Of a stretch of DNA of 64,000 bases, positions 19,996 to 31,800 are shown one piece after another. A program made the position numbers and the translations under genes. This DNA comes from a virus. The stretch covers positions 24,633 to 88,632 of IMG/VR virus record IMGVR_UViG_3300049718_000055; one strand, given 5' to 3'. The stretch's first letter is position 1, and each line of letters begins with the position of its first letter. The notes under the pieces were generated by a model. That model saw only the letters and a list, made by a program, of their open reading frames with translations. It was not told the origin of the DNA and did not search any database.

Positions 19996-20004
19996 TTCAC
20001 CCTC

Positions 20005-21189
20005 CTAGAAAAATACACCCGCGGTCGGAGAACCCACTATCGGAGATCCGCCGCCTCCACTCAATGACACCTGCCCACCAGAGTTCGTCAACACCACCAC
20101 AGCAACTATTTGGTTCCCATCAAAATTTACCTGAAGCCTATTTTGTGCAGTATCGCCAGAATACGGCCCCGAAAGAATGACAATTCGGCTTCCCTTTTTG
20201 ACGCTGTAGTACCACACGTTCCCTACTTCAACGCTTCCCCCAGACCCGCTAACGGTTCCCAGGGAGGCTTGATAGGTGAACGTATACGGCGGAGTTGCTG
20301 AACTGATCGGATATGAGCCATTGAACCCCGCAGGGGATACTCCGGCAATCGTCATCGAACTTTGAGCCGTGAGCCCCGTGGCTACATAGGTAACCACCGT
20401 CACAAGGTTTCCCACACTGGAGATTGAATGGATTCCATACGAGGTAGGAAGGGAAAGGGTATCCGTCCTTCCGTACAAATAGGTTTTACTTCCATCGGCA
20501 AAAGTGAAGGGGCTGGCCGGAATGGTTACCGTCACGCTTCCGGCATTTGTTATTGCAGCCACTAGGAAATAGGCGCTTCCAACCGAGCCGGACTGAGTGG
20601 GATAAACCTTGTCCCCAATCGCATAATTCAACCCTCCAAAAACACTTCCCCCTGTGACCACCCCGCCAGCCGCCGTAATCGCAGCCAAAGCCCCCGTGCC
20701 GCTTCCCGAAGTGGTCGTAGGCAGGTTGGAAGCATTGCTGTACCCAGAAGTTCCGCCAGCCCCCAGAGAAGACGAAGTGATTACCCCGCCCGAGATAGAG
20801 TTCGTTGTCAGCGGAATGATGTTGTTGGCGTTTGGGGGAGTTGACATAAGATCGTTCAACCAGGAGCTTTGCTGCTCCCTCTGTGAATTTGAATTTATCA
20901 TCCGATACGTGTCGAGAGAGTTTCCGCTGTTTGCCTGAAGCTGCGGCTTCAAAGCGGCAGCACTGTACGAAGTCTTCGCCGCCCCGCTCGTCAACGCATC
21001 ACTATCCGAGGTCGGCGCCGCAACATTCTTGATATTATTGCCACCGAGGTTGAGATGATTGCTCAACTCGACTTCCCCATTATGACCGCCAAGAGTGTTC
21101 ACGTTGTCAATCAGTTGGCTCATCAATTGGCTCTCTGGAAGAGACAGGGAGGAAAAGTTTATCTTTCCGAGTTTGGAAGACTTCGGCAT
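20005..21189 (-). CDS. Tail/structural protein
   Basis: Gly/Ser/Thr beta-rich; NIKNVAAPTSDSDA neck-like motif. Confidence 0.6.
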   Translation of the reverse strand: MPKSSKLGKINFSSLSLPESQLMSQLIDNVNTLGGHNGEVELSNHLNLGGNNIKNVAAPTSDSDALTSGAAKTSYSAAALKPQLQANSGNSLDTYRMINSNSQREQQSSWLNDLMSTPPNANNIIPLTTNSISGGVITSSSLGAGGTSGYSNASNLPTTTSGSGTGALAAITAAGGVVTGGSVFGGLNYAIGDKVYPTQSGSVGSAYFLVAAITNAGSVTVTIPASPFTFADGSKTYLYGRTDTLSLPTSYGIHSISSVGNLVTVVTYVATGLTAQSSMTIAGVSPAGFNGSYPISSATPPYTFTYQASLGTVSGSGGSVEVGNVWYYSVKKGSRIVILSGPYSGDTAQNRLQVNFDGNQIVAVVVLTNSGGQVSLSGGGGSPIVGSPTAGVFF

Positions 21190-21470
21190 TATCCAGCTAC
21201 CTCTACTAGTTTTCCGTGCTGTTCCCACGGCGTAACGACATCATCAGGAACAGGACCAAAACACCTTCCTTCGTTCTTGCATTCCGATATTCCCGATCTT
21301 GACATTCTAGAATCAGGTTTTCCGTGAAAGATATGACGCTTCCCGTCAGTCTTTGAAATCTTCGGAATCCAATACTGTTCGCACCCCCAGCAGTATCCGT
21401 CAACCTGAAACCTTGGAAATTCGGATTGGATCGTCTCTGGCATGGAATCAGTATACCCCAATGTAGGCAT
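21189..21470 (-). CDS. Hypothetical Cys-containing protein
   Basis: CWGC; stop coupled to next start. Confidence 0.5.
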   Translation of the reverse strand: MPTLGYTDSMPETIQSEFPRFQVDGYCWGCEQYWIPKISKTDGKRHIFHGKPDSRMSRSGISECKNEGRCFGPVPDDVVTPWEQHGKLVEVAG

Positions 21471-21500
21471 AAACAGAAAAGCCTCTTCCGAAGAAGAGGC
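21471..21500 (-). terminator. Intrinsic terminator
   Basis: GCCTCTTC-TTCG-GAAGAGGC followed by TTTTCTGTTT. Confidence 0.75.
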
Positions 21501-21521
21501 CCGTCTGCGGATAGGGGAAGC

Positions 21522-22031
21522 CTAAGCCGGGGTTGTAAATTGCACTGCCACGCTTTGCGTGAGTTGGGCCGGCGGAACGACAGCGTTCGTGGTGATTGTG
21601 AACGCCTGAGTCCAGGTCGAAACCACGCCGTCATTATCAGTGACCGTGGCAGCAGCCGTTCCAGTGACAGCGCCGGCCGAGGCCGCTACGCCGGTAACAG
21701 TGGCGGTCAAGCCGTCAGCATTGAGAACCACGGTCGCGGACGGGTCCGAGAACGTGTACGAGACGGCAGAGAGTACGCCGCCAGAGAGGGTGACGCCATC
21801 GGCCAAAAGGGGCTGAATGGACGCCTGCGAAGTTTGACCAACATTGAGGGTCAAAGCATTGTTTGCCATGGGTGAGTCTCCTGTGAAACGAACTTCGATT
21901 GAGTAGGTTGCGAGTTTGGGTTTGAGTTCACGGCGAATCTCTCTGAGCAACCGCTCAATCCGATGTCTTGCATAGAGCGTTGCCCATTGACATTCTAAAA
22001 TTTCACGTAATTGTTCGAGTGGATTCTCCAA
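21522..22031 (-). CDS. Ig-like domain protein (two in-frame starts, 22031 and 21869)
   Basis: LTLNVGQT..SDPSATV..DGLTATVTGVA Big_2-like domain; RBS before both starts. Confidence 0.65.
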   Translation of the reverse strand: MENPLEQLREILECQWATLYARHRIERLLREIRRELKPKLATYSIEVRFTGDSPMANNALTLNVGQTSQASIQPLLADGVTLSGGVLSAVSYTFSDPSATVVLNADGLTATVTGVAASAGAVTGTAAATVTDNDGVVSTWTQAFTITTNAVVPPAQLTQSVAVQFTTPA

Positions 22032-22096
22032 ATGGTCCCTCCACCAATCTCTTAACTACACTATACCACTACATTTTGAATCTGTGGTGAGCAATA

Positions 22097-22180
22097 TGGA
22101 GCGGGGGACGGGATTTGAACCCGCGTGTCTCTCGACGGCAGCTTGGAAGGCTGCTGACCTACCAGTTGGTCATCCCCCGC
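22097..22180 (-). tRNA. tRNA-Gly(TCC), long variable arm
   Basis: GCAGC-CT TCC AA-GCTGC; TCCA end. Confidence 0.9.
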
Positions 22181-22185
22181 AAACT

Positions 22186-22259
22186 TGGTGCTCCCCGCAG
22201 AAATCGAATCCGCATTGGCCGATAATCGGTCGGCTTTCCTACCATTGGAAGAGAGGAGC
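22186..22259 (-). tRNA. tRNA-Ile(GAT), C33/T37
   Basis: GCCGA-CC GAT TA-TCGGC. Confidence 0.85.
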
Positions 22260-22260
22260 A

Positions 22261-22334
22261 TGGGGCCGGGAGCGAGAATCGAACTCGCGCCTCATCCGTA
22301 CCAGGGATGCAGTCTCCCACTAAAATATCCCGGC
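22261..22334 (-). tRNA. tRNA-Thr(GGT)
   Basis: CATCC-CT GGT AC-GGATG. Confidence 0.9.
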
Positions 22335-22340
22335 TCTACT

Positions 22341-22418
22341 TGGTGCGGATGGCAGGACTCGAACCTGCGGTAATTCTTCTTTGTAGGAGAAGCGGCGTCG
22401 CCACTGGCCCACATCCGC
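22341..22418 (-). tRNA. tRNA-Val(TAC), C33
   Basis: CTTCT-CC TAC AA-AGAAG. Confidence 0.85.
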
Positions 22419-22423
22419 AAAAC

Positions 22424-22501
22424 TGGTACTCCCGGTTGGACTCGAACCAACATCAATCCACTTACGGACACTCGCTTCGGAGGCGAGACCGATACGGGAG
22501 C
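22424..22501 (-). tRNA. tRNA-Arg(CCG), no canonical D-arm
   Basis: CTCGC-CT CCG AA-GCGAG; 7-nt connector. Confidence 0.85.
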
Positions 22502-22506
22502 ATAAC

Positions 22507-22583
22507 TGGGGCCGCTGGCCGGAATCGAACCGGCGTCATCCAACTACTCTTGCCGGTTTAGGAAACCGGAGAGATACAGCGGC
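22507..22583 (-). tRNA. tRNA-Arg(CCT), no canonical D-arm
   Basis: CCGGT-TT CCT AA-ACCGG; 7-nt connector. Confidence 0.85.
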
Positions 22584-22587
22584 AAAC

Positions 22588-22664
22588 TGGCGCTCCCGGC
22601 AGGAGTCGAACCCGCGTCATCCGTCTACGGCCTCCTGTTTAGAAGACAGTGCCGATACGGGAGC
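22588..22664 (-). tRNA. tRNA-Arg(TCT), no canonical D-arm
   Basis: CTGT-CT TCT AA-ACAG; 7-nt connector. Confidence 0.85.
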
Positions 22665-22666
22665 AT

Positions 22667-22752
22667 TGGTGGAGCCGGTGGGACTCGAACCCACATTGGG
22701 TTACCCCGCTGATTAAAAGTCAGGTCTCTGCATCCAATTCGAGTACGACTCC
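22667..22752 (-). tRNA. tRNA-Lys(TTT), long variable arm
   Basis: CTGA-CT TTT AA-TCAG; V hairpin GGG-TAA-CCC. Confidence 0.9.
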
Positions 22753-22758
22753 GAAACT

Positions 22759-22833
22759 TGGTGGGTCGCCGGGGAATCGAACCCCGCTCTTTCGATTAAG
22801 AGTCGAGTGCATCGCCGACAATGCTTGCAACCC
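22759..22833 (-). tRNA. tRNA-Lys(CTT)
   Basis: TCGA-CT CTT AA-TCGA. Confidence 0.9.
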
Positions 22834-22836
22834 ACA

Positions 22837-22930
22837 TGGTAGGGGATGAAGGTGTCGAACCTTCCCGTTGCGCTAATCTGGCGCTCTCCAGAGTTTATAA
22901 GACTCCGCCGCACGGCCGATGCTATCCCCC
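22837..22930 (-). tRNA. tRNA-Ile(TAT), long variable arm
   Basis: GGAGT-CT TAT AA-ACTCT; V hairpin GCGC-CAGATTA-GCGC. Confidence 0.85.
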
Positions 22931-22936
22931 AAAACT

Positions 22937-23008
22937 TGGTGCCGCGCCTGAAAATCGAATTCAGCAAACAGGGTTATGAATCCTGCGTTCTCTCCAGAGA
23001 TGCGCGGC
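22937..23008 (-). tRNA. tRNA-Met/Ile2(CAT), small D-arm
   Basis: CAGGA-TT CAT AA-CCCTG. Confidence 0.8.
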
Positions 23009-23009
23009 T

Positions 23010-23083
23010 TGGCAGGGGATACAGGACTCGAACCCGTAAATTCCGCTCTGGAGGCGGACGTTTTTCCATTAGACTAATCCCCT
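23010..23083 (-). tRNA. tRNA-Trp(CCA)
   Basis: TCCGC-CT CCA GA-GCGGA. Confidence 0.92.
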
Positions 23084-23095
23084 ATGTCAAAGAGC

Positions 23096-23121
23096 ATAAA
23101 AAACCCGCTCCTGAGAGCGGG
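23096..23121 (-). terminator. Attenuator terminator, operon 1
   Basis: CCCGCTC-TCAG-GAGCGGG-TTTTTT, upstream of tRNA-Trp. Confidence 0.9.
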
Positions 23122-23148
23122 CCTGTCGCAACAAAAACGCAGCAGACC

Positions 23149-23220
23149 CTAAAACACGACTCCCCAAATGACCCGCTTCCCGGTCATTCTGGTTATCACG
23201 TGTTTGGTCCTGATCTGCAT
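23149..23220 (-). CDS. Leader peptide 1 MQIRTKHVITRMTGKRVIWGVVF
   Basis: AGGTGG RBS; codons match all 12 downstream tRNAs. Confidence 0.85.
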   Translation of the reverse strand: MQIRTKHVITRMTGKRVIWGVVF

Positions 23221-23240
23221 GAATTCCCACCTGCAAGTAC

Positions 23241-23269
23241 AGCGTACATCAACTTTCCGTTTTGTGCAA
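23241..23269 (-). promoter_or_regulatory. Sigma70-like promoter P1
   Basis: TTGCAC-17-TACGCT. Confidence 0.75.
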
Positions 23270-23273
23270 CTGC

Positions 23274-24458
23274 TCAGTCCTTGTAAGGATCAAATTCACG
23301 GGCAGATGCCATAGCCACTCCGACCGGGGTCAACACGTGAAGAACTTTGATCGAATCTCCACACGCCGCAAGAACTCCGTCTAGCCGTTTGTAGCAGTCT
23401 GGAGATTCGTCTAACCCGGCGCCACGCAGTTCAATTCCGGCCTTCCTTACCCATCCATCCATCATCTCCTGAGTTACTCTTCCAGGGCGCTTGCACTCGC
23501 CTGTCTTGCGGTCGAAAGTCCCCTTCGCCTCCATGCGACCCATTGCACGGCCAGCGCCGTGAACGGTTGAGTAAAGGCTGTACTTGGCATCCTCGTTCTC
23601 CATGCCCTCCAAGATGACGGACTTCTCGCCCATCGTTCCTCCAACGAATCCCTTCTGTCCAGGGAACGCCGGAGTGGCTCCCTTGCGAACAACCCACAGC
23701 ATCTCACCACCATGCTCTTCCCGCCATGCGAAGTTGTGATGGTTGTGAACCTCTTCAATAGCCTTAGCTCCAAGAATCTTAATCACGCGGTCGCAGACCC
23801 AGTTCCTTCCTGCATAAGCGTACTCGCCGGCAAGAGACATAGCCTGTAGATATTCGCTGCCTAGTGCGCTGTCTACCGACAAGACACATGGCTCCACATC
23901 CATTCCGTCTTTTGCTCCTGCTGCTTTCAAAAACCACGTTGCAATCTTATGCCCGAGGCCGCGAGAACCGAAATGAACACCCACCCAAACGCGGTCTTCT
24001 TCGTCTGTAAAAAGATCTACATAATGGTTTCCAGAACCCAAAGTCCCAAGTTGCTGATGAGCCATTTCCTTGAGCGGGGAGGTCATTGAAAGACTCCAGG
24101 CATCATGCTCGAAAACCTGATCGTCTACACGCTCGTCGTCATTCTTTCTCCCAACCCCAAAACTGACTATATTCCATACGTCATCCATTATCGGCTTGAT
24201 GCTGCCACGCAACATCCAGCCTTCCATGTCGGTCAACACGGCCTTGTTTCCACAGCCGATGTCGTATCCCACTCCGGTTGGGCTGATGGAATTTCTATAA
24301 GCCACAACACCGCCAATGGGCACACCGTACCCAAGGTGGTTATCTGGCATCAATGCCACTTTGTCCGCGGTTTTCGCACAGGTCCGAATCTGGTTGAGAG
24401 TCTTTTCTTCAGCTTCCCCAAATACCGGTATAGTTCCATCTACTAACTGCATCCCCAT
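23274..24458 (-). CDS. rtcB: RNA ligase RtcB
   Basis: PDNHLGYGVPIG, VGYDIGCG, GTLGSGNHY, HNHHN, RKGAT, HGAGR, DESPDCYK; start revised to follow the GGAGG RBS. Confidence 0.97.
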   Translation of the reverse strand: MGMQLVDGTIPVFGEAEEKTLNQIRTCAKTADKVALMPDNHLGYGVPIGGVVAYRNSISPTGVGYDIGCGNKAVLTDMEGWMLRGSIKPIMDDVWNIVSFGVGRKNDDERVDDQVFEHDAWSLSMTSPLKEMAHQQLGTLGSGNHYVDLFTDEEDRVWVGVHFGSRGLGHKIATWFLKAAGAKDGMDVEPCVLSVDSALGSEYLQAMSLAGEYAYAGRNWVCDRVIKILGAKAIEEVHNHHNFAWREEHGGEMLWVVRKGATPAFPGQKGFVGGTMGEKSVILEGMENEDAKYSLYSTVHGAGRAMGRMEAKGTFDRKTGECKRPGRVTQEMMDGWVRKAGIELRGAGLDESPDCYKRLDGVLAACGDSIKVLHVLTPVGVAMASAREFDPYKD

Positions 24459-24473
24459 ACCCTCCTTTTTATT

Positions 24474-24548
24474 TGGTGAGCGCGGAGGGAATCGAACCCC
24501 CATCGTTGCGTTCGTAGCGCAGCACTCTATCCGTTGAGCTACGCGCCC
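24474..24548 (-). tRNA. tRNA-Arg(ACG)
   Basis: TGCG-CT ACG AA-CGCA; canonical D-arm with GGA. Confidence 0.92.
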
Positions 24549-24559
24549 ACATTCAAACT

Positions 24560-24633
24560 TGGTCTCCGAGGGCGGACTCGAACCGCCGACACCGCGCCCC
24601 GAACGCGGGATGTTTCCACTACACTACTCAGAG
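24560..24633 (-). tRNA. tRNA-Pro(CGG)
   Basis: CCGCG-TT CGG GG-CGCGG. Confidence 0.9.
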
Positions 24634-24634
24634 A

Positions 24635-24708
24635 TGGTCAGCGAGGGGAGAATTGAACTCCCACCACAAGTTCCCAAGACTTGGATGCAACCATTACACC
24701 ACTCACTG
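24635..24708 (-). tRNA. tRNA-Pro(TGG)
   Basis: CAAGT-CT TGG GA-ACTTG. Confidence 0.92.
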
Positions 24709-24717
24709 ATTAAAAGT

Positions 24718-24885
24718 TATGCGTGACGGAATCAAACCGTCTCCACCCGCTCCAATGCGGGAGTGCTATCCGTCCAGAGTCGTGTCGATCTTGAGCCGCT
24801 ACGTATCGCCCCAAAACGCATTCCACTGTACTGCCTTCGCTACGCTCCGTCGAGCTTCACTTTGGCTTCATTACACCAACGCATA
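24718..24885 (-). ncRNA. tRNA-like element with ~97-nt insertion in the D-loop, 6-nt anticodon loop, no CCA
   Basis: TATGCGT/ACGCATA acceptor, GTGT/GCAC D-stem, CCCGC-ATTGGA-GCGGG, GACGG-TTTGATT-CCGTC. Confidence 0.7.
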
Positions 24886-24887
24886 CT

Positions 24888-24963
24888 TGGTGCCGACTAC
24901 CCGTATCGAGCGGGTTTCCATCGCTCTTCAGGCGATTGCTATGACCTCATCAGCTAAGTCGGC
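24888..24963 (-). tRNA. tRNA-Phe(GAA)
   Basis: ATCGC-CT GAA GA-GCGAT. Confidence 0.9.
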
Positions 24964-24968
24964 AAAAC

Positions 24969-25044
24969 TGGTGGACCTAGAGGGGCTTGAGTCCTCGACC
25001 TCCCCGGTGCAAACGGGGTGCTACTCCATCTGAGCTATAGGCCC
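24969..25044 (-). tRNA. tRNA-Ala(TGC)
   Basis: CCCCG-TT TGC AC-CGGGG; G3:U70. Confidence 0.92.
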
Positions 25045-25052
25045 GTAAAACT

Positions 25053-25128
25053 TGGAGGGAAAGGTGGGAGTTGGACCCACTAGAACCTGTTCCACAGACA
25101 GGCGCCGCACCGTTTGGCTTCAGTCCCC
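25053..25128 (-). tRNA. tRNA-His(GTG)
   Basis: CCTGT-CT GTG GA-ACAGG; G-1 present; two acceptor mismatches. Confidence 0.85.
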
Positions 25129-25138
25129 ATAAAGCTGT

Positions 25139-25210
25139 TGGGGCCGGATGTGGGAATCTAACCCACCGCGCAGGCCGTACAAAGGGCTGCTGCTACTCAG
25201 AGCATCCGGC
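25139..25210 (-). tRNA. tRNA-Thr(TGT), atypical
   Basis: TT TGT AC loop, short D-arm, T-loop TTAGATT. Confidence 0.75.
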
Positions 25211-25759
25211 TCAGTTAAACGCATACCTCTTATCACCTTCGGAGTCCGTGAATAAAAACGGACCCCACTCATTTACCTCGGCGCCGAGAGACCTCAACAA
25301 AAATCGCGGCGTGTGAATCGACTGCGGCAGCGGCCGGCGAAGCAACTTCATTCCAGCTTCCTCCGGCGTCCGGTCGGCCTTGCGGTGATTATCTTTGGCG
25401 CAACATGAAACCAAGTTGCTCCACGATGGCGATCCTCCTCTTGACTTTGGAATTATGTGGTCAAGAGTTAGTTCGCTAGTCTTGAACCTTTCTCCGCAAT
25501 ACATACACCTTTCTCCGTCACGAAGAAAAATGTTCTTGCGGCTTACAACTTGAAGCCTAATTGGGACGTGGCGATAAGCGCGAAGCCTGATTACCGATGG
25601 AGCATAGATTCCAAGTCCGCGATGGATAAGTACATCGGTAGGAACCTCAACCAGAGCAACACCTTTCGTAATAAGAGTCAGAGCCTTCTTAACTGAAACT
25701 ATGCGAAGCGGCTCATACGATGCATTGAGAAGAAGTGTTGCGCTTTTTCCTATTGTCAT
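25211..25759 (-). CDS. HNH endonuclease (McrA-like, tRNA-array-associated type)
   Basis: LLLNASYEPL..PSVIRL..RDGERCMYCG..LTLDHIIPKSRGG..WSNLV..N. Confidence 0.93.
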   Translation of the reverse strand: MTIGKSATLLLNASYEPLRIVSVKKALTLITKGVALVEVPTDVLIHRGLGIYAPSVIRLRAYRHVPIRLQVVSRKNIFLRDGERCMYCGERFKTSELTLDHIIPKSRGGSPSWSNLVSCCAKDNHRKADRTPEEAGMKLLRRPLPQSIHTPRFLLRSLGAEVNEWGPFLFTDSEGDKRYAFN

Positions 25760-26531
25760 AGTCACCACGCTCCCAACGTTCTTTCAGTAAAGCAGACATC
25801 TTCGCCTTAGTTTCTTCCTTGTGCTTCATACCTTTGTTTCCAGGTACTCTGCCTTTCCTGATTGCCGACTGTTTAGCCCGTGTTTCTTCGGAAGCCTTTT
25901 TACCTGTCAGAGAGCGAGAAATCTTTGCTTTACTCTCTTCTGAAAGTTTCCTTCGTCTGTTCGCCGCAGAAATCTTCTCACTAAATCCCTGCGGTTTAGG
26001 TCTCCCCTTCAAAGCAGCAGATCGTTTTGCTTTTTCTTCCTCCGACATTGGGCCTAATTTCCGGCCCCTAAATGATGCCGACATACGCGCTTTGGTTTCT
26101 TCCGAACGCTTTGAACCAGTCCTAGATTTAATCATCTTGGCTATCGCCTCTGCTGTGTGTCTCAATCCCTTATGCACAGCAGATACTTTCGCTTTCATTT
26201 CGGCTGTTCTAACCGCTCCTGATCCTCCCTCGCCCCCATCTGTTCTATTTCTCAAGCATCCAGTTCCAAGGTTAATTCTCCCATGGAATTTTATTAGCTG
26301 CTTCTCCATGAAAAACGCTTCGTCCTCTGACAAATCTTTGGCAATAATTACAATCATCGATTTATCTTTTGGAGTACGTATCGCTTCAATAGGATTTTTC
26401 TTATAGGCTCTTAACCCGTGTCCTTTCCCTATGTAATAAGGAGAACCCGCTGGGCCGTGTTCGGAGGCAAAAGTCCTCACGTATTGGTATACGTAAAACC
26501 CAGAGATTACAGGTCTCCTATAGTTACTCAC
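25713..26531 (-). CDS. GIY-YIG homing endonuclease with NUMOD3 repeats
   Basis: FYVYQY..PYYIGKG..R..NRTDGGEG, repeated SEETKAKMS; start revised to GTG 26531 because a tRNA lies upstream. Confidence 0.88.
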   Translation of the reverse strand: MSNYRRPVISGFYVYQYVRTFASEHGPAGSPYYIGKGHGLRAYKKNPIEAIRTPKDKSMIVIIAKDLSEDEAFFMEKQLIKFHGRINLGTGCLRNRTDGGEGGSGAVRTAEMKAKVSAVHKGLRHTAEAIAKMIKSRTGSKRSEETKARMSASFRGRKLGPMSEEEKAKRSAALKGRPKPQGFSEKISAANRRRKLSEESKAKISRSLTGKKASEETRAKQSAIRKGRVPGNKGMKHKEETKAKMSALLKERWERGDYDNRKKRNTSSQCIV

Positions 26532-26555
26532 TGTCTTACTCTCTTTCCTTAAAAG

Positions 26556-26630
26556 TGGAGCCGGGTAGCGAAATCGAATCGCTGTCTGTGGGATACGAAT
26601 CCACTGCTCTGCCATCTGAGCTAACCCGAC
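26556..26630 (-). tRNA. tRNA-Thr(CGT)
   Basis: GTGGA-TT CGT AT-CCCAC. Confidence 0.9.
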
Positions 26631-26713
26631 TATGTTTTTCTGCTAACCTCTTCCACACTTCTCGGAGATCGGCATTCAAATGAAACCTGTGCGGCATGTC
26701 AACCTCCAAAATT

Positions 26714-26787
26714 TGGAGCGGTTTGCCGGATTTGAACCGGCGCTTTCGCCCTGGCAAGGCAACGTCTTACCACTCGACTAAAACCGC
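26714..26787 (-). tRNA. tRNA-Gly(GCC)
   Basis: TTGCC-TT GCC AG-GGCGA. Confidence 0.92.
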
Positions 26788-26792
26788 TTCAC

Positions 26793-26866
26793 TGGCTCCG
26801 AGAGTAGGAGTCGAACCTACACAGCGAGCTTCAAAGACTCGCGGCCTACCGTTAACCGATCTCGGA
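26793..26866 (-). tRNA. tRNA-Gln(TTG)
   Basis: CGAGT-CT TTG AA-GCTCG. Confidence 0.9.
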
Positions 26867-26873
26867 TCAAACT

Positions 26874-26949
26874 TGGCTGGGAAGGCAAGTCTCGAACTTG
26901 CTACCTTCCGGGTCAGAGCCGGACGTTCTACCCGTTGAACTTCTTCCCA
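26874..26949 (-). tRNA. tRNA-Gln(CTG)
   Basis: TCCGG-CT CTG AC-CCGGA. Confidence 0.92.
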
Positions 26950-26958
26950 ACTTCAAAC

Positions 26959-27033
26959 TGGCTGTGCAGGTGGGAGTCGGACCCACATCCTCTCGCTTAA
27001 CAGGCGAACGCTCGACCATTGAGCTACCGCACA
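26959..27033 (-). tRNA. tRNA-Asn(GTT)
   Basis: TCGC-CT GTT AA-GCGA. Confidence 0.92.
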
Positions 27034-27035
27034 TC

Positions 27036-27074
27036 AAAAAGCCCCTAACCGCTTATTCTCGGCTAGGGGCTTTT
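27036..27074 (-). terminator. Attenuator terminator, operon 2
   Basis: GCCCCTAGCCG-8nt-CGGTTAGGGGC-TTTTT, 2 nt before tRNA-Asn. Confidence 0.9.
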
Positions 27075-27117
27075 CCTCATTTGCTACGTTGTAGCAGTTG
27101 AATCTTTGCGCCCAAGC

Positions 27118-27180
27118 CTACACGGGATTACCGAACGCTTGTGGCGTTGTCGGCTGTCCGGTATGGGCTCGGTTCATCAT
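27118..27180 (-). CDS. Leader peptide 2 MMNRAHTGQPTTPQAFGNPV
   Basis: ATG 7 nt after the -10 box (leaderless); codons match all 12 downstream tRNAs. Confidence 0.87.
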   Translation of the reverse strand: MMNRAHTGQPTTPQAFGNPV

Positions 27181-27187
27181 GTTTCCT

Positions 27188-27216
27188 ACTTTACCGCCGT
27201 TCGCAATTTCTGTCAA
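27188..27216 (-). promoter_or_regulatory. Sigma70-like promoter P2
   Basis: TTGACA-17-TAAAGT. Confidence 0.85.
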
Positions 27217-27225
27217 ATCATTTTC

Positions 27226-27302
27226 TGGTAGGGTTGGTGGAACTCGAATCCACTAGGACATGATTGAAGGTCATGGTGCTCGTCCGCTTTGCATTCAACC
27301 CC
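27226..27302 (-). tRNA. tRNA-Glu(TTC), C33
   Basis: CATGA-CC TTC AA-TCATG. Confidence 0.87.
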
Positions 27303-27307
27303 ATAAC

Positions 27308-27384
27308 TGGCGCGGTAGACGGAAATCGAATCCGTGTACACGATCTTGAGAGAATCGCTGGAGAACCAGCACCCCTGCTACCGC
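27308..27384 (-). tRNA. tRNA-Glu(CTC)
   Basis: CGATT-CT CTC AA-GATCG. Confidence 0.87.
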
Positions 27385-27385
27385 A

Positions 27386-27460
27386 TGGCGGTCCCACGGG
27401 GAGTTGAACCCCGAACGCCTCTTAGACAGAGAGGAATCATTGCCGTTAGACCATGGGACC
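27386..27460 (-). tRNA. tRNA-Asp(GTC)
   Basis: CCTCT-CT GTC TA-AGAGG. Confidence 0.9.
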
Positions 27461-27464
27461 AAAA

Positions 27465-27583
27465 GTTCCGTTTTGTTTGCCTAGCGGCCCAGTCTCCCAT
27501 CGCATTAGCAGAATTCCGACTGAGGTTCATCCACTGCGGACTCGAGTCCGTTTGCTAGACTCTTGCCAGAACGGTACTGGCCT
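27465..27583 (-). ncRNA. Unassigned structured RNA between tRNA-Met and tRNA-Asp
   Basis: Nested helices CCGTTCTG/CAAAACGG, GTCTAGC/GCTAGGC, CGGAC-TCGA-GTCCG, CTCAGTC/GACTGGG. Confidence 0.55.
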
Positions 27584-27589
27584 TTGGAT

Positions 27590-27664
27590 TGGTTGCGTGG
27601 GGAGGACTCGAACCTCCGGTCTCCAGCTTATGAGGCTGGCGAGATGCCGCTTCTCTACCTCGCC
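27590..27664 (-). tRNA. tRNA-Met(CAT), 1-72 mismatch (initiator-like)
   Basis: CCAGC-CT CAT AA-GCTGG; G1xA72. Confidence 0.87.
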
Positions 27665-27669
27665 ATTTC

Positions 27670-27698
27670 AGTATGCCACTACTCTTTCATGTTGGCAA
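27670..27698 (-). promoter_or_regulatory. Internal sigma70-like promoter P4
   Basis: TTGCCA-17-CATACT, 5 nt upstream of tRNA-Met. Confidence 0.7.
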
Positions 27699-27701
27699 GT
27701 A

Positions 27702-27787
27702 TGGTGCATCGCCCCAGGCTCGAACTGGGCTGCTCCGAAGAGCGGCAGGTTTACAGTCTGCTGGCCGTCCACCCGACCATGCGATGC
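27702..27787 (-). tRNA. tRNA-Tyr(GTA)
   Basis: GCAG-ACT GTA AAC-CTGC; long V arm. Confidence 0.92.
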
Positions 27788-27791
27788 AAAA

Positions 27792-27881
27792 TGGAGGAAG
27801 GTGGAGTAATCGAAACCCTACGCCATCGCTGACGCACCACGGTTTTCAGGACCGTTCGCCGACCATTCAGCGGCACCTTCC
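27792..27881 (-). tRNA. tRNA-Ser(TGA), 8/4 fold
   Basis: GGAAGGTG/CACCTTCC 8-bp acceptor, 4-bp T-stem, ACGGT-CC TGA AA-ACCGT. Confidence 0.85.
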
Positions 27882-27885
27882 AAAC

Positions 27886-27973
27886 TGGCGGAGACGATCC
27901 GATTTGAACGGATGGAACCTTGCGGTTCGGAGGTTTAGCAAACCTCTGGATTAGACCGCTCTCCCACGTCTCC
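27886..27973 (-). tRNA. tRNA-Ser(GCT)
   Basis: GAGGT-TT GCT AA-ACCTC; long V arm. Confidence 0.92.
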
Positions 27974-27978
27974 AAACT

Positions 27979-28054
27979 TGGTGCCGATGGTCGGGTACGA
28001 GCCGACAAGCCTGAAGGTTTGAGCTTCAGAGGTATTCCTTCCCATCACATCGGC
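27979..28054 (-). tRNA. tRNA-Leu(CAA), short variable loop
   Basis: TGAAG-CT CAA AC-CTTCA. Confidence 0.85.
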
Positions 28055-28059
28055 AAAAC

Positions 28060-28135
28060 TGGTGCGGGTGGAGGGACTCGAACCCCCATGAGACTGATCC
28101 TAAGTCAGCCGCGTATTCCATTCCGCCACACCCGC
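28060..28135 (-). tRNA. tRNA-Leu(TAG), short variable loop
   Basis: GCTGA-CT TAG GA-TCAGT. Confidence 0.9.
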
Positions 28136-28146
28136 ACATCTCAAAC

Positions 28147-28219
28147 TGGAGTACCGGGCCGGACTTTAACCGGCTTCAACGGTTTTGCAGACCGTCCGCT
28201 CGCCCTTCGCTTCCGGTAC
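28147..28219 (-). tRNA. tRNA-Cys(GCA)
   Basis: ACGGT-CT GCA AA-ACCGT; U73. Confidence 0.88.
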
Positions 28220-28220
28220 A

Positions 28221-28298
28221 TGGTGCGGGTGAACGGTGTCGAACCGATCCTAAACTGGGCTTAAACCAGTTGCCTCTTCCAACGTGGGCTACACCCGC
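28221..28298 (-). tRNA. tRNA-Leu(TAA), short variable loop
   Basis: ACTGG-TT TAA GC-CCAGT. Confidence 0.88.
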
Positions 28299-28300
28299 AC

Positions 28301-28334
28301 AAAACAAAGCCGCCGATCTCTTCGACCGGCGGCT
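28301..28334 (-). terminator. Attenuator terminator, operon 3
   Basis: AGCCGCCGGTC-GAAGA-GATCGGCGGCT-TTGTTTT, directly before tRNA-Leu. Confidence 0.9.
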
Positions 28335-28360
28335 CGTGAATTCCAAACTTTGGAATCAGT

Positions 28361-28426
28361 TCACATAAGCCCCCGGCCCGTCAATGGCAGGCAATACGAG
28401 GATAGCGAACTGAGTAAAATTCTCAT
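28361..28426 (-). CDS. Leader peptide 3 MRILLSSLSSYCLPLTGRGLM
   Basis: ATG 6 nt after the -10 box (leaderless); all six Leu codons, 4 Ser, Tyr, Cys. Confidence 0.87.
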   Translation of the reverse strand: MRILLSSLSSYCLPLTGRGLM

Positions 28427-28432
28427 ATCCAA

Positions 28433-28461
28433 ATCTTCCCACAGATAATCATTATTGTCAA
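28433..28461 (-). promoter_or_regulatory. Sigma70-like promoter P3
   Basis: TTGACA-17-GAAGAT with extended TGn. Confidence 0.75.
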
Positions 28462-28515
28462 TCGGTCATTCCGGTACAGTTAAATTCCCCTCTTCGTCCT
28501 CCAATTGAGGCTGAG

Positions 28516-28740
28516 GTGTACACCATGCCACTAAGTTTGTTTTGGATCATCGCCGTTGTAATCATTGCCGGAGTAGTTCTTTGGGCTCTAAACTCGTTCC
28601 CTGCCATTGACCCCACCATGAAGCAGATCGCCAGAGTGCTTATCATCGTGCTCGTGGTTATCATGGTTCTCTACTTCCTGTTTGGATTGCTTGCAGGTGG
28701 TGGTGCGGGATTCCATAGCTTCCCCGGTCCTTGCCGCTAA
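28516..28740 (+). CDS. Small two-TM membrane protein
   Basis: Two hydrophobic helices flanking PAIDPTMKQI. Confidence 0.75.
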   Translation: MYTMPLSLFWIIAVVIIAGVVLWALNSFPAIDPTMKQIARVLIIVLVVIMVLYFLFGLLAGGGAGFHSFPGPCR

Positions 28741-28752
28741 TCTTGCCGGCAC

Positions 28753-28782
28753 AAAAAAGCGGCAGACCCGAAAGCCTGCCGC
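28753..28782 (-). terminator. Intrinsic terminator after the nozzle gene
   Basis: GCGGCAGGC-TTTCGG-GTCTGCCGC-TTTTTT. Confidence 0.8.
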
Positions 28783-28850
28783 ATTCCCCATGATTTGATC
28801 TGCGTTGTTATGAATAAACTCTACATCCGGTCGTAGAAGTTGTCAACCGC

Positions 28851-31800
28851 TCATGGCTCCACAAACAATACTTTCTCGTAGCCTCTCCCTTGGCACTGGA
28901 CCTTGTACCACAAATTAGAATCAGGCCAAAGAATAAAGTCCTCCGTACTTGTTCCGACCATTCTCAGTGTACGGAACGAGATTGCCGGTAGTCGGGTCCG
29001 CAATGGATTGCGAAAGCCGCCAGCTTGCGGCATTACAAATGTGAATCCAGCCGTTGGATTATCGTCGTAGAACACGTTGACAATGATCGGCGCACCCGCT
29101 GAGTAAATCCAGAAAACGTCGCGCGCAAATTTGGAAGATGCCTCCGAAATATTGATCTTGTAAGTGTCGAACGTCTTCCTCGTCCTCGGCAGTACCAGAG
29201 CCTCTACAGCGGCTTGGTACAGGTACGCGAACGTGGACAGATTCCCGACGATCTGGAGACTGATTTTGTAGGCTTGCTGGCCGAGTCCGTTGAGCAACGG
29301 CAGGTTGATCTTGCCGCGAGTCGAGTTGCTGATCGTTCCGAGTGGGACCGTGATTGCGCCGTCATTAAACAAGGCGTTGACGGTCAAGGTCTGCCCCCCG
29401 AGGTTGCAGTCAACCACAATCGCGTTGTACTGTTTCTGGTTTGCCGGCGAGCTTTGGAATGAGTAAGCAGTCTGGAGATTGATTGCAATCGGCCCCGCGG
29501 CCAGTACGCCCCCGCTTGATACTTGATCGTAGGGAAGGTTTTGCCGGTCAATGTGTACGAGCCCGTTTGAATCGCCGTAGAGCAACTGATTCGTATCGGC
29601 CTCAAGCATCAAGCATTGCGCGTCAACGTCATCATTCCTGAATCGCTTGTACTGAGCGTGGTATACCAACCGATGCCGGTTTCCGTCCGTACCGATGTAA
29701 CTGAAAAATACCATTGAGTTCCAGTACGAAGCCACCGTCTGCGACAACTTCGTTTGGTCCGCTTCGACAATCGGAGTGGAACCTACGCCCTGGAAAAGGA
29801 ACTCAACCTGGAGACTCATGTACACCGACTCCCCACCAGTAAAAGCACGTAGACCATCTGCGGCTTGGTAGGCAATCATCTCTTCGGTCGCCACGTACCC
29901 AAATGGCGCCACACAACCATGCGCACAAGACGTGGGATATGGTGCCTGTTTTGCCGGACTGTCCGGTGGAACCATCCACCATCCGCTTTTGATACAACTG
30001 ACCATGATATTTCCCTTGAAAGGCACCACGGCCGTAATGTAATCATCCGGCGTAGAGATGATGATGTTGTTCGCTTCACCCACGTACTGCGGAGCGTTTC
30101 CGGTGCTGAAGTAAAGCGTTGACGGGTTGTTCGGATCTCCCCAATACCATGCCTTGTTGAAAGCTATGACCATGCCGTAGACCGGCTGGCCTACCTTAAT
30201 ACTCGCCTGGACCTGCTCTCCAGCCGCATGATAATTCTGGACAAAGGCAGTGAAAGAACTCACTCCGACTGTCAATACCACTACGGTTTCAAAGTTGTTT
30301 GCTTGAGCCGTTGGATTCCCCAACAAGACTTGCTGGCGCACTGAGATGTTCGCCATGCTTGCCGGGTTTATCGTCACTACAGAGCCCACCGGAATATCTG
30401 GCAGCGTGTAATAGATCGTGACCACTAGATTGTTGACATAGACGGTTGCCGCTGATGATCCTAAGTTGTCTCCGCCTACAAGCGTCTGAGTAAAATCAGC
30501 ATTGACGATTGCAGGAGTAATCGTAGTGCCCCACAAATTTCCACTTCCACCAAAGACATAAGTCTGCGGAGCTAGTGTCAAGGAAATCTCTGCCGGAAGG
30601 GCGGCTCCGGGAATATTTATACTTGCGGTCATCTTAGGACCGAGCACGCTCGTATAAGCATCAAAGCTGACTTTAATTCCGGTGATGGTCGCGGTTAAGG
30701 GGATGCTCGGAAGACTGAAGTCTCCCTGCAAGGCCCCAATCCCTTGCGAAGCAGGTGCCGACACGGACGTATAAAGTGATGAAGATGTAGCGTTGGTTGG
30801 ATTTACCCAAGTAGACCCGACCGGATTCGATCCTGTGATTGACGGAGAAACCTGTAATGTTCCTACAATAGCAGCGTTCAGTGTAGTATTCACCGGAACC
30901 GGAAGAAGACTCGGAACCGGAACATCGTTCGTAAACGAAACCATATCCGCTCCGGCTATCAGGTAGTCCGGTGCCGTGTCGGTATACTGGACTATCCCCC
31001 CGCCCTCTATGCTGATCGGGATTTCGTCTATTCGCCTGAAGTTATCTCCGTAGGTTCCCCCTCTTCTATAGATTCTCAGATACCCGATCTGACCATCCTG
31101 CAACTGTCCTGCGGGTCCGTAAGTCTTAGTGTTGATTTTTAACAACACCGGCTGGCGCCGCGGGTAGACCCAGTTCGTATGGTTAGGCGGGTTCTGATTC
31201 GTCATTATCGGAGATGGATTCGATTCCGTTCCATCCACGTCATTTAAGAACGTCGCAACATAGTCATAGGCTACTCCACCAAGAGTATCTGGACCTGCCC
31301 CTCCAAACAGTACCAGAGAAGAAAGTTTAATCGTCGAGCTTGAGTTGTCATTCATCACAATCGTGATCTGATAGCCGTTGACGTTTGACCAGTTGTAGAC
31401 CGCATCTTTATAGTCCGCCATCCCTGCTCCAGAAAAATCTGACAACTGGAAGAGAAGCGGCGTCCAGATATTTTTCCCTGTATCCAGTTCTCCGATAGAC
31501 CCGGCTCCATTTCCGTAAAGGCTGAGACTATCCTCAAGAACAGCTTCCGTTAGAAGAGTAGTTACGCTACTTGTCCCAGAGGCAGAAGATGTTGCTAAAG
31601 TAGTCAACTCCTGCAAAGGTCCTTGGGAAATTACTTTATAGAAATAGTCGCTCTCGAATGATCCGTCTCCGCAATCAAAACTTAGCGTTATGCTCTGGAT
31701 TTGCGTTTGGTCGCTGACAAACATATAGAGACCAATGTAATCAGATTGGTTGTCGGATACAGTCTCGCTAGAGGGGATAGGATATGGACCTATCGGAAGC

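Follow-up and report, generated by a model that had tools for sequence, protein, structure and literature searches.

Leader-peptide attenuators and phage tRNA arrays

The attenuators of amino-acid operons (trp, his, leu, thr, ilv, and pheA) have a common layout: a short ORF followed by an intrinsic terminator precedes the regulated genes, the regulatory codons are related to the product of the operon, and a helix between the ORF and its stop-codon region is accompanied by an alternative helix reaching the 5' arm of the terminator. The phage leader described here, unit C, shares this layout in each respect. It differs in that the regulated genes are 12 tRNA genes and not genes of biosynthetic enzymes, in that the supply of the tRNAs themselves would be sensed, in the short overlap of the alternative helix with the terminator, and in being phage-borne. 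Moreover, a classical leader carries a run of one codon, whereas in the phage leaders as many as 12 different codons occur, each once or twice. Since its regulated genes are tRNA genes, unit C should be regarded as a variant and not a member of the classical leader-peptide attenuators.

Two other systems are close enough to be compared. In the pyrBI-type attenuator the leader ORF overlaps the terminator hairpin or traverses it, while the unit C ORF does not enter it, its stop codon ending 24 nt 5' of the terminator 5' arm. T-box riboswitches resemble the mode of action proposed for unit C in that passage through a terminator is governed by the state of a specific tRNA; however, a T-box senses one tRNA, which pairs directly with it at a single specifier codon and through the acceptor end, independently of the ribosome, whereas the triplets of unit C lie in the single frame of an ORF. 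An Rfam scan of positions 20000-30000 with E values up to 1 gave only tRNA-like and weak chance matches, and no T-box or other riboswitch. A full-text literature search found neither a leader-peptide attenuator of tRNA genes nor a codon-matched ORF ahead of phage tRNA arrays. One candidate precedent, a Phe-rich leader of the E. coli tRNA-Phe genes, was discarded, as the stretch of 105 nt preceding pheV in MG1655 has a promoter-like site but lacks an ORF of this kind.

Phage tRNA arrays may serve codon-usage matching or escape from tRNA-cleaving defences. The Pnk/Rnl pair of phage T4 repairs tRNA-Lys cut by PrrC. The array described below resembles those directed against tRNA-targeting defences in that a large tRNA set adjoins the RNA repair ligase RtcB, and in that the gated block includes tRNAs for Lys and Arg, which are frequent nuclease targets. 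According to recent work, bacterial immune nucleases often act on tRNAs, and infection can be rescued by tRNAs of the phage (PMC12409363); a sensor of tRNA supply situated beside an RNA ligase would thus be plausible.

The tRNA locus

The source record is the 88.6-kb IMG/VR genome of a peat-soil phage, with a G+C content of ca. 52%; the window, to which all positions refer, is the whole 64,000-nt stretch of it that was analysed. All genes between 22,000 and 28,900 lie on the minus strand. They comprise about 35 tRNA genes, grouped in blocks, with the genes for the RNA ligase RtcB (24503..23274, minus), an HNH endonuclease, and a NUMOD3 protein set among them. A comparison of the region with 50,697 phage records by megablast and blastn gave no match, so that no close relative among cultured phages emerged.

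The block downstream of unit C (22097..23083, minus), established by ARAGORN, by hand reading, and from homologous loci, comprises 12 tRNA genes in the order Trp(cca), Met(cat), Ile(tat), Lys(ctt), Lys(ttt), Arg(tct), Arg(cct), Arg(ccg), Val(tac), Thr(ggt), Ile(gat), and Gly(tcc); the 5' end of tRNA-Trp, its first gene, is at 23083. All 12 anticodons listed for the block in the initial annotation are thus present. With default settings ARAGORN recognizes seven of the 12 genes; Ile(gat) and Met(cat) are recognized when the settings are relaxed. The anticodon loops of Arg(tct), Arg(cct), and Arg(ccg) were read by hand, and ARAGORN calls tRNAs at the same positions in homologous loci. These three tandem Arg genes (22424-22665, minus), missed by default ARAGORN, have long variable regions. 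Unusual lengths are also found in Lys(ttt) (86 nt, 22667-22752), Ile(tat) (94 nt, 22837-22930), and Gly(tcc) (84 nt, 22097-22180), all on the minus strand, and some of the odd tRNAs of the block score better in Rfam as tRNA-Sec-like.

The leader ORF and its codon content

Between rtcB and the block lies an ORF of 23 codons and a TAG stop (23220..23149, minus) coding for MQIRTKHVITRMTGKRVIWGVVF, exactly as read in the initial annotation. The codons of this ORF correspond to all 12 anticodons of the block, 11 of them exactly and Val(tac) through wobble with GTG, and 20 of the 23 residues belong to the block's eight amino acids; both of these counts, reported earlier, proved correct on recounting. 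The match is far above chance. In a set of 91,157 stop-free segments of 23 codons, taken from all six frames of the 88.6-kb genome, the highest score is 11 exact matches, attained by four segments, and the number of leader codons that the block can read (18 of 23) is the genome maximum, too. Read in either of the other two frames, the stretch matches only two of the 12 anticodons, so the signal is tied to the reading frame and not to base composition.

The ORF has the marks of a translatable one, namely a Shine-Dalgarno-like site, a frame that is kept among homologues, a stop codon that varies, and indels in threes (see below). The sequence AGGTGGG (23226..23232, minus), a putative Shine-Dalgarno site, lies 5 nt 5' of the ATG. 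It is a part of a 14-nt insertion relative to L002, the locus with the closest RtcB (79% identity), which carries homologues of leaders B and C at the same places and whose ORF would be leaderless. A candidate promoter, TTGCAC (23269..23264) and TACGCT (23246..23241) with a 17-nt spacer, precedes the ORF on the minus strand (23241..23269), although it scores 8/12, under the threshold of the promoter scan. At the aligned place L002 has TTGACA-18-TACTAT with the ATG 6 nt downstream, while most homologues have TGnTATAGT about 31 nt 5' of the ATG, right after tRNA-Arg(acg). A -10-like box 6-7 nt 5' of the ATG is found in units A and B of the window, in units B and C of L002, and in unit 1 of the distant locus L011. 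This position suggests leaderless messages, the putative promoters being consensus matches.

Conservation of the leader

A degenerate pattern derived from the shared core of the leader detected 96 metagenome stretches and four IMG/VR ones, among which about 90 metagenomic and three viral sequences are true homologues, 72 of them distinct over 180 nt. The homologues are closely related, and their large number stands for few independent events. Their tRNA block is nearly constant, and in most of them the leader lies about 45 nt after tRNA-Arg(acg), with no intervening RtcB. In all 72 distinct stretches the ORF stays open and its frame is kept. The stop codon may be TGA, TAG, or TAA, always at one site directly 5' of GGGTCTG, and the length changes by threes: by +3 nt in L084, by -3 nt in metatranscriptome contigs, and by in-frame C-terminal extensions in L091 and L168.

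The codon columns differ strongly in their variability. The entropy calculated for 52 distinct leaders, taking into account only columns left free by the search pattern, is 0.41-0.87 in the columns with the cognate codons AGG, AAA, ATA, AGA, and GTG, and 1.02-1.66 in the non-cognate columns interleaved with them, where changes are mostly non-synonymous. When cognate columns mutate, they almost always do so to other codons read by the block (fraction cognate 0.90-1.0). Furthermore, third positions that the pattern left free are fixed in AAG, CGG, and ATT (96-100%) and in GTC (94%). Judged from the aligned sequences, this column pattern is the one predicted for a codon sampler and not for a functional peptide. 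There is one exception: ACC is conserved although Thr(ggt) is undetected in most of the homologous blocks. At codon 13, where ACC is invariant, the codon falls in the stem of hairpin P, described below.

Two metatranscriptome runs cover small parts of the stretch, as contigs only, with unreadable ends and with possible carry-over of DNA. In one RNA-library contig, from a relative, the sequence spans the interval from the 3' end of the leader to tRNA-Trp, which is a weak hint of a transcript passing the terminator; another covers the leader and has codon 14 deleted.

Secondary structures in the leader transcript

An intrinsic terminator (23097..23124, minus) with a 10-pair stem (23124..23101), a TCAG loop, and a run of six T residues is located between the ORF and the regulated genes, 14 nt 5' of tRNA-Trp. 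The exact terminator sequence had no match when searched for in IMG/VR. Upstream of it, several helices may form. Hairpin P (23167..23188, minus) consists of AATGACC (23188..23182) and GGTCATT (23173..23167) and encloses the variable codon 14; its stem is invariant, and the loop codon varies or is deleted in frame. Hairpin H2, the pairing of regions 2 and 3 (23119..23149, minus), is formed by GGGTCTG (23149..23143) and CAGGCCC (23125..23119). The first G of its 5' arm is the last base of the TAG stop codon and its 3' arm enters the 5' arm of the terminator. Finally, AGCGGGTC (23177..23170) can pair with GGCCCGCT by eight pairs, including one G-U. All these helices (P, AGCGGGTC:GGCCCGCT, H2, and the terminator) had been named in the initial annotation, and all of them exist.

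A further helix escaped that annotation. In the minimum-free-energy fold, region 1, GCAGATC (ORF nt 3-9; 23212..23218, minus), pairs with GGTCTGC just 3' of the stop codon. RNAalifold applied to the 72 distinct sequences (alignment A1) yields three elements: P, this long-range helix joining ORF codons 2-5 with the stop codon and GGGTCT, and the terminator. The consensus structure is paired in 97.3% of cells and none of 500 shuffles reached the observed covariation. The long-range helix (A1 columns 20-27 with 86-93) is the one that shows covariation: in four of its seven pairs both sides have changed, the double changes being carried by few window-type sequences, i.e., by few events. On the evidence of the alignment it is this helix, between the 5' part of the ORF and the stop region, that supplies the missing "region 1:2" of the leader.

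The other elements are conserved to various degrees. The terminator stems have been rebuilt in homologues by compensatory changes, with one pair split between AT (37) and GC (25), and divergent members have entirely different arms. P shows no variation in 70 distinct sequences. The arms of H2 are 93-99% paired in homologues and almost invariant within the main group. Stem conservation of P and H2 in this near-invariant group is inseparable from codon conservation. In the divergent members (the window, L002, L084, L091/L180, and L168) other sequences make up H2 and the terminator, but H2 likewise begins at the stop codon or a few nt from it and enters the terminator 5' arm by 2-7 nt, an arrangement present also in unit 2 of L011.

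Of the two antiterminators proposed in the initial annotation, the one at the stop codon, H2, is thus a conserved alternative helix. Its overlap with the terminator 5' arm is, however, only 3-4 nt in the main group and 2-7 nt overall, so that it may be easily displaced. The other, AGCGGGTC:GGCCCGCT, is present in the window but is specific to it, relatives keeping five to six of its pairs; as it is not conserved and relatives have other terminator arms, it was dropped from the general model.

Between the T-run and the 5' end of tRNA-Trp lies TTGACA (23085..23090, minus), replaced by TTGAAA in most homologues. As a promoter it was ruled out, since the tRNA starts 1 nt later and there is no fitting -10 box. 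The interval contains a TCTTTGA(A/C)A motif, conserved in about 70 homologues, which may be a processing site.

Folding with a ribosome on the leader

In equilibrium folding of the full transcript with a 29-nt ribosome footprint imposed at each position, the probability of the terminator is 0.90-0.99 wherever the ribosome stands. Dominance of the terminator irrespective of ribosome position had been named in the initial annotation as an outcome that would refute attenuation, and formally it is what this calculation gives; however, the E. coli trpL control gives it equally (0.98 at every position), so the result does not discriminate and equilibrium folding was discarded as a test.

A transcript cut 5' of the terminator 3' arm, with the footprint imposed and the pairing of the terminator 5' arm scored, reproduces the trpL switch: the pairing is 0.06 in the absence of a ribosome, rises to 0.63-0.72 when the A site is on UGG UGG CGC, and is 0.06 with the ribosome at the stop codon. 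The commonest homologue of unit C has a similar profile, with 0.38 for the ribosome-free transcript, 0.7-1.0 when the ribosome stalls at codons 1-13, and 0.0 when it stands at the stop codon. In unit B the respective values are 0.33, 0.7, and 0.5, and in unit A 0.86, 0.9, and 0.5. Unit C of the window itself starts from 0.75 with no ribosome and reaches 0.9-1.0 at codons 5-9, 0.6 at codons 19-20, and 0.9 at the stop codon. With the ribosome at the stop codon, AGCGGGTC outcompetes hairpin P and the terminator arm remains sequestered, so the window is predicted to be a leaky switch unless P forms first. In these models attenuation fits the leader family, and the window less cleanly. As any sequence is expected to drop somewhat near the stop codon, the truncated-fold result is supportive and not decisive. 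What the initial annotation had called a classical mutually exclusive attenuator is borne out in its conserved codon-tracking ORF, its terminator, and its recurring layout, while a "classical" switch built from the helices named there is not established.

Related leaders in the window and in other phages

Two other tRNA blocks of the window are preceded by leaders of the same kind. In both unit A and unit B a promoter-like site is followed by a short ORF, then by a strong hairpin with its T-run, and finally by the tRNA block. In unit B (27034..27216, minus) TTGACA-17-TAAAGT, an ORF (27180..27118), and a terminator precede the Asn/Gln/Gln/Gly/Thr block and what lies beyond it, as the transcription unit continues after two endonuclease genes with Thr, His, Ala, Phe, Pro, Pro, Arg, and RtcB. 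Unit A (28299..28461, minus) comprises an ORF (28426..28361) and a terminator (28335..28307) ahead of a Leu/Cys/Leu/Leu/Ser/Ser/Tyr block, and its ORF contains each of the six Leu codons once, together with Ser, Tyr, and Cys codons. Each leader matches its own block (8/8 in unit A, 12/12 in unit B, and 12/12 in unit C) and meets one to six anticodons of the other blocks. The value for unit A counts Met(cat); it becomes 7/7 if Met(cat) is assigned to a separate promoter.

The group Met(cat), Asp, Glu, Glu following the unit A block has its own promoter-like site and is sampled by no leader of the window, nor was a leader ORF of its own found there. The site (27670-27698, minus) reads TTGCCA-17-CATACT preceded by TG, and the start would fall at about the first base of tRNA-Met(cat). 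Metagenomic relatives that have Asp and Glu tRNAs within the Leu/Ser block have D and E in the corresponding leader, so that the content of the leader tracks that of the block.

L011, a distant phage whose RtcB is 61% identical, carries two codon-matched leader units. The ORF of unit 1, ahead of a block of Ser, Tyr, four Leu, Trp, Cys, and Ser, covers nine of nine anticodons (P = 5.6e-4) and the second ORF, ahead of a block of 23 tRNAs, covers 20 of 23 (P = 4.8e-4); both P values need a roughly tenfold discount, as each ORF is the best of several candidates. Tested against each other's block, the two leaders are unremarkable (P = 0.59 and 0.95). The layout thus recurs ahead of other tRNA blocks with distinct, block-specific leaders, in units A and B and in L011. 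In unit 1 of L011 (L011:2944-3051) the matched ORF ends 20 nt 5' of the first tRNA with no terminator in between, and therefore not every matched leader can use intrinsic termination. In L005 (RtcB 71% identical) and at most other RtcB loci the upstream ORFs were unimpressive in the codon-match scan, which indicates that the codon-matched design is not universal in phages carrying RtcB.

Proposed mechanism and alternative explanations

The explanation we consider best, with a probability of about 0.6, is ribosome-mediated attenuation by which the supply of the tRNA set feeds back onto transcription of its block. From the observed anatomy, codon match, specificity of the match, and its conservation we infer translation of the ORF, termination, the direction of the switch, and the helices that act, as follows. 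The ORF would be a leader peptide gene whose sole job is to be translated, and in which the codons served by the twelve downstream phage tRNAs are each sampled one or two times. Transcription would begin at a promoter 5' of the ORF, or read in from the preceding genes, and meet a strong terminator. When decoding is fast, the ribosome would reach the stop codon and cover the 5' arm of H2, allowing the terminator to form and leaving the tRNA block off. When one of the tRNAs is scarce, its codon would be decoded slowly and the ribosome would stall within the ORF. A stalled ribosome would melt the pairing of the ORF 5' end with the stop-codon region, H2 (in the window also AGCGGGTC) would then occupy the base of the terminator, and RNA polymerase would continue into the tRNA genes. 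The net effect would be negative feedback, the supply of each tRNA of the block setting the transcription of the block it belongs to.

Such a codon-sampling leader would be a simple form of autoregulation, in which a tRNA set is made only when its codons decode slowly, and it would widen the concept of leader-peptide attenuation from the sensing of one amino acid to that of a dozen tRNA species at once. If this is true, these leaders are compact natural sensors of tRNA availability. A broader proposal is tentative, and we hold it somewhat less probable than its opposite: that a widespread family of peat and soil phages uses "codon-sampler" leaders as sensors of decoding capacity, which switch on tRNA operons (and in unit B also RtcB) only when the matching host tRNAs run short, e.g., after cleavage by a tRNA-targeting defence nuclease. 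If this is correct, no attenuators of tRNA genes were known before these leaders, which would also be an inbuilt trigger of counter-defence.

Among the alternatives the most serious one, although clearly less probable than attenuation, accepts that the ORF is real and translated but assigns to ribosome stalling another role, in the processing or stability of the precursor, in access of Rho, or in the release of a leader RNA acting in trans, with the terminator being an ordinary one, constitutive and partly leaky. It would account for the matched ORF of L011 unit 1, which has no terminator before the tRNAs, for the 2-7 nt overlap of H2 and the terminator, for the fold of the window, which is not switch-like at the stop codon, and for the relative's RNA-library contig running from the leader 3' end to tRNA-Trp. 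Against it stands the strong terminator that separates ORF and tRNAs in all three units of the window (A, B, and C), in L002, in unit 2 of L011, and in some 90 homologues. Also against it, the start of the hairpin is always at the stop codon or a few nt away, despite differing sequence, and the truncated-fold profile of the common form mirrors that of trpL.

An unlikely alternative is a functional micropeptide, e.g., one acting through the conserved C-terminal half RMTxKRVIWGVV, with the codon match being secondary. The amino acid sequence of this half is indeed almost invariant; however, free third positions are fixed as well, which selection on protein alone does not predict, and the N-terminal half drifts non-synonymously except at cognate codons. 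Moreover, three unrelated leaders of one phage each match their own block. Even less probable is direct binding of anticodons by codon-like triplets of the leader RNA, i.e., a T-box-like device with multiple specifiers that acts without translation. Complementarity to 12 anticodons within 70 nt is what such a device would need, but the matching triplets all lie in one start-to-stop frame (12 against 2 and 2), indels come in threes, and the Rfam scan, with its E values up to 1, contains no T-box or riboswitch match. Hardly credible is an ordinary rtcB terminator accompanied by a chance ORF: the hairpin lies 150 nt 3' of the rtcB stop codon, but the codon match is the genome-wide maximum, conservation respects codon boundaries, and most homologues keep the ORF and the terminator with no RtcB upstream, so that the hairpin is not simply a terminator of that gene.

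Other features of the tRNA array

Apart from the leaders, several features of the array deserve mention. A segment of about 170 nt (24716-24887, minus) has ends forming a 7-pair acceptor stem (TATGCGT/ACGCATA) and, toward its 3' end, a part resembling a T-arm and an anticodon arm, which suggests a tRNA gene with an insert of ca. 100 nt after the D region; none of the tools used called it as a tRNA. The genes for the HNH endonuclease and the protein with NUMOD3 motifs (25211-26615, minus) lie inside the array, between Thr(cgt) and Thr(tgt), and divide a block that is single in relatives. A second strong hairpin with a T6 run (28759-28782) is located directly 3' of a minus-strand promoter-like site, TTGACA-17-TAGAGT. 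A 74-codon ORF coding for a hydrophobic product on the plus strand (28516-28740) ends just before this hairpin, which may be the terminator of the plus-strand gene or a two-way terminator.
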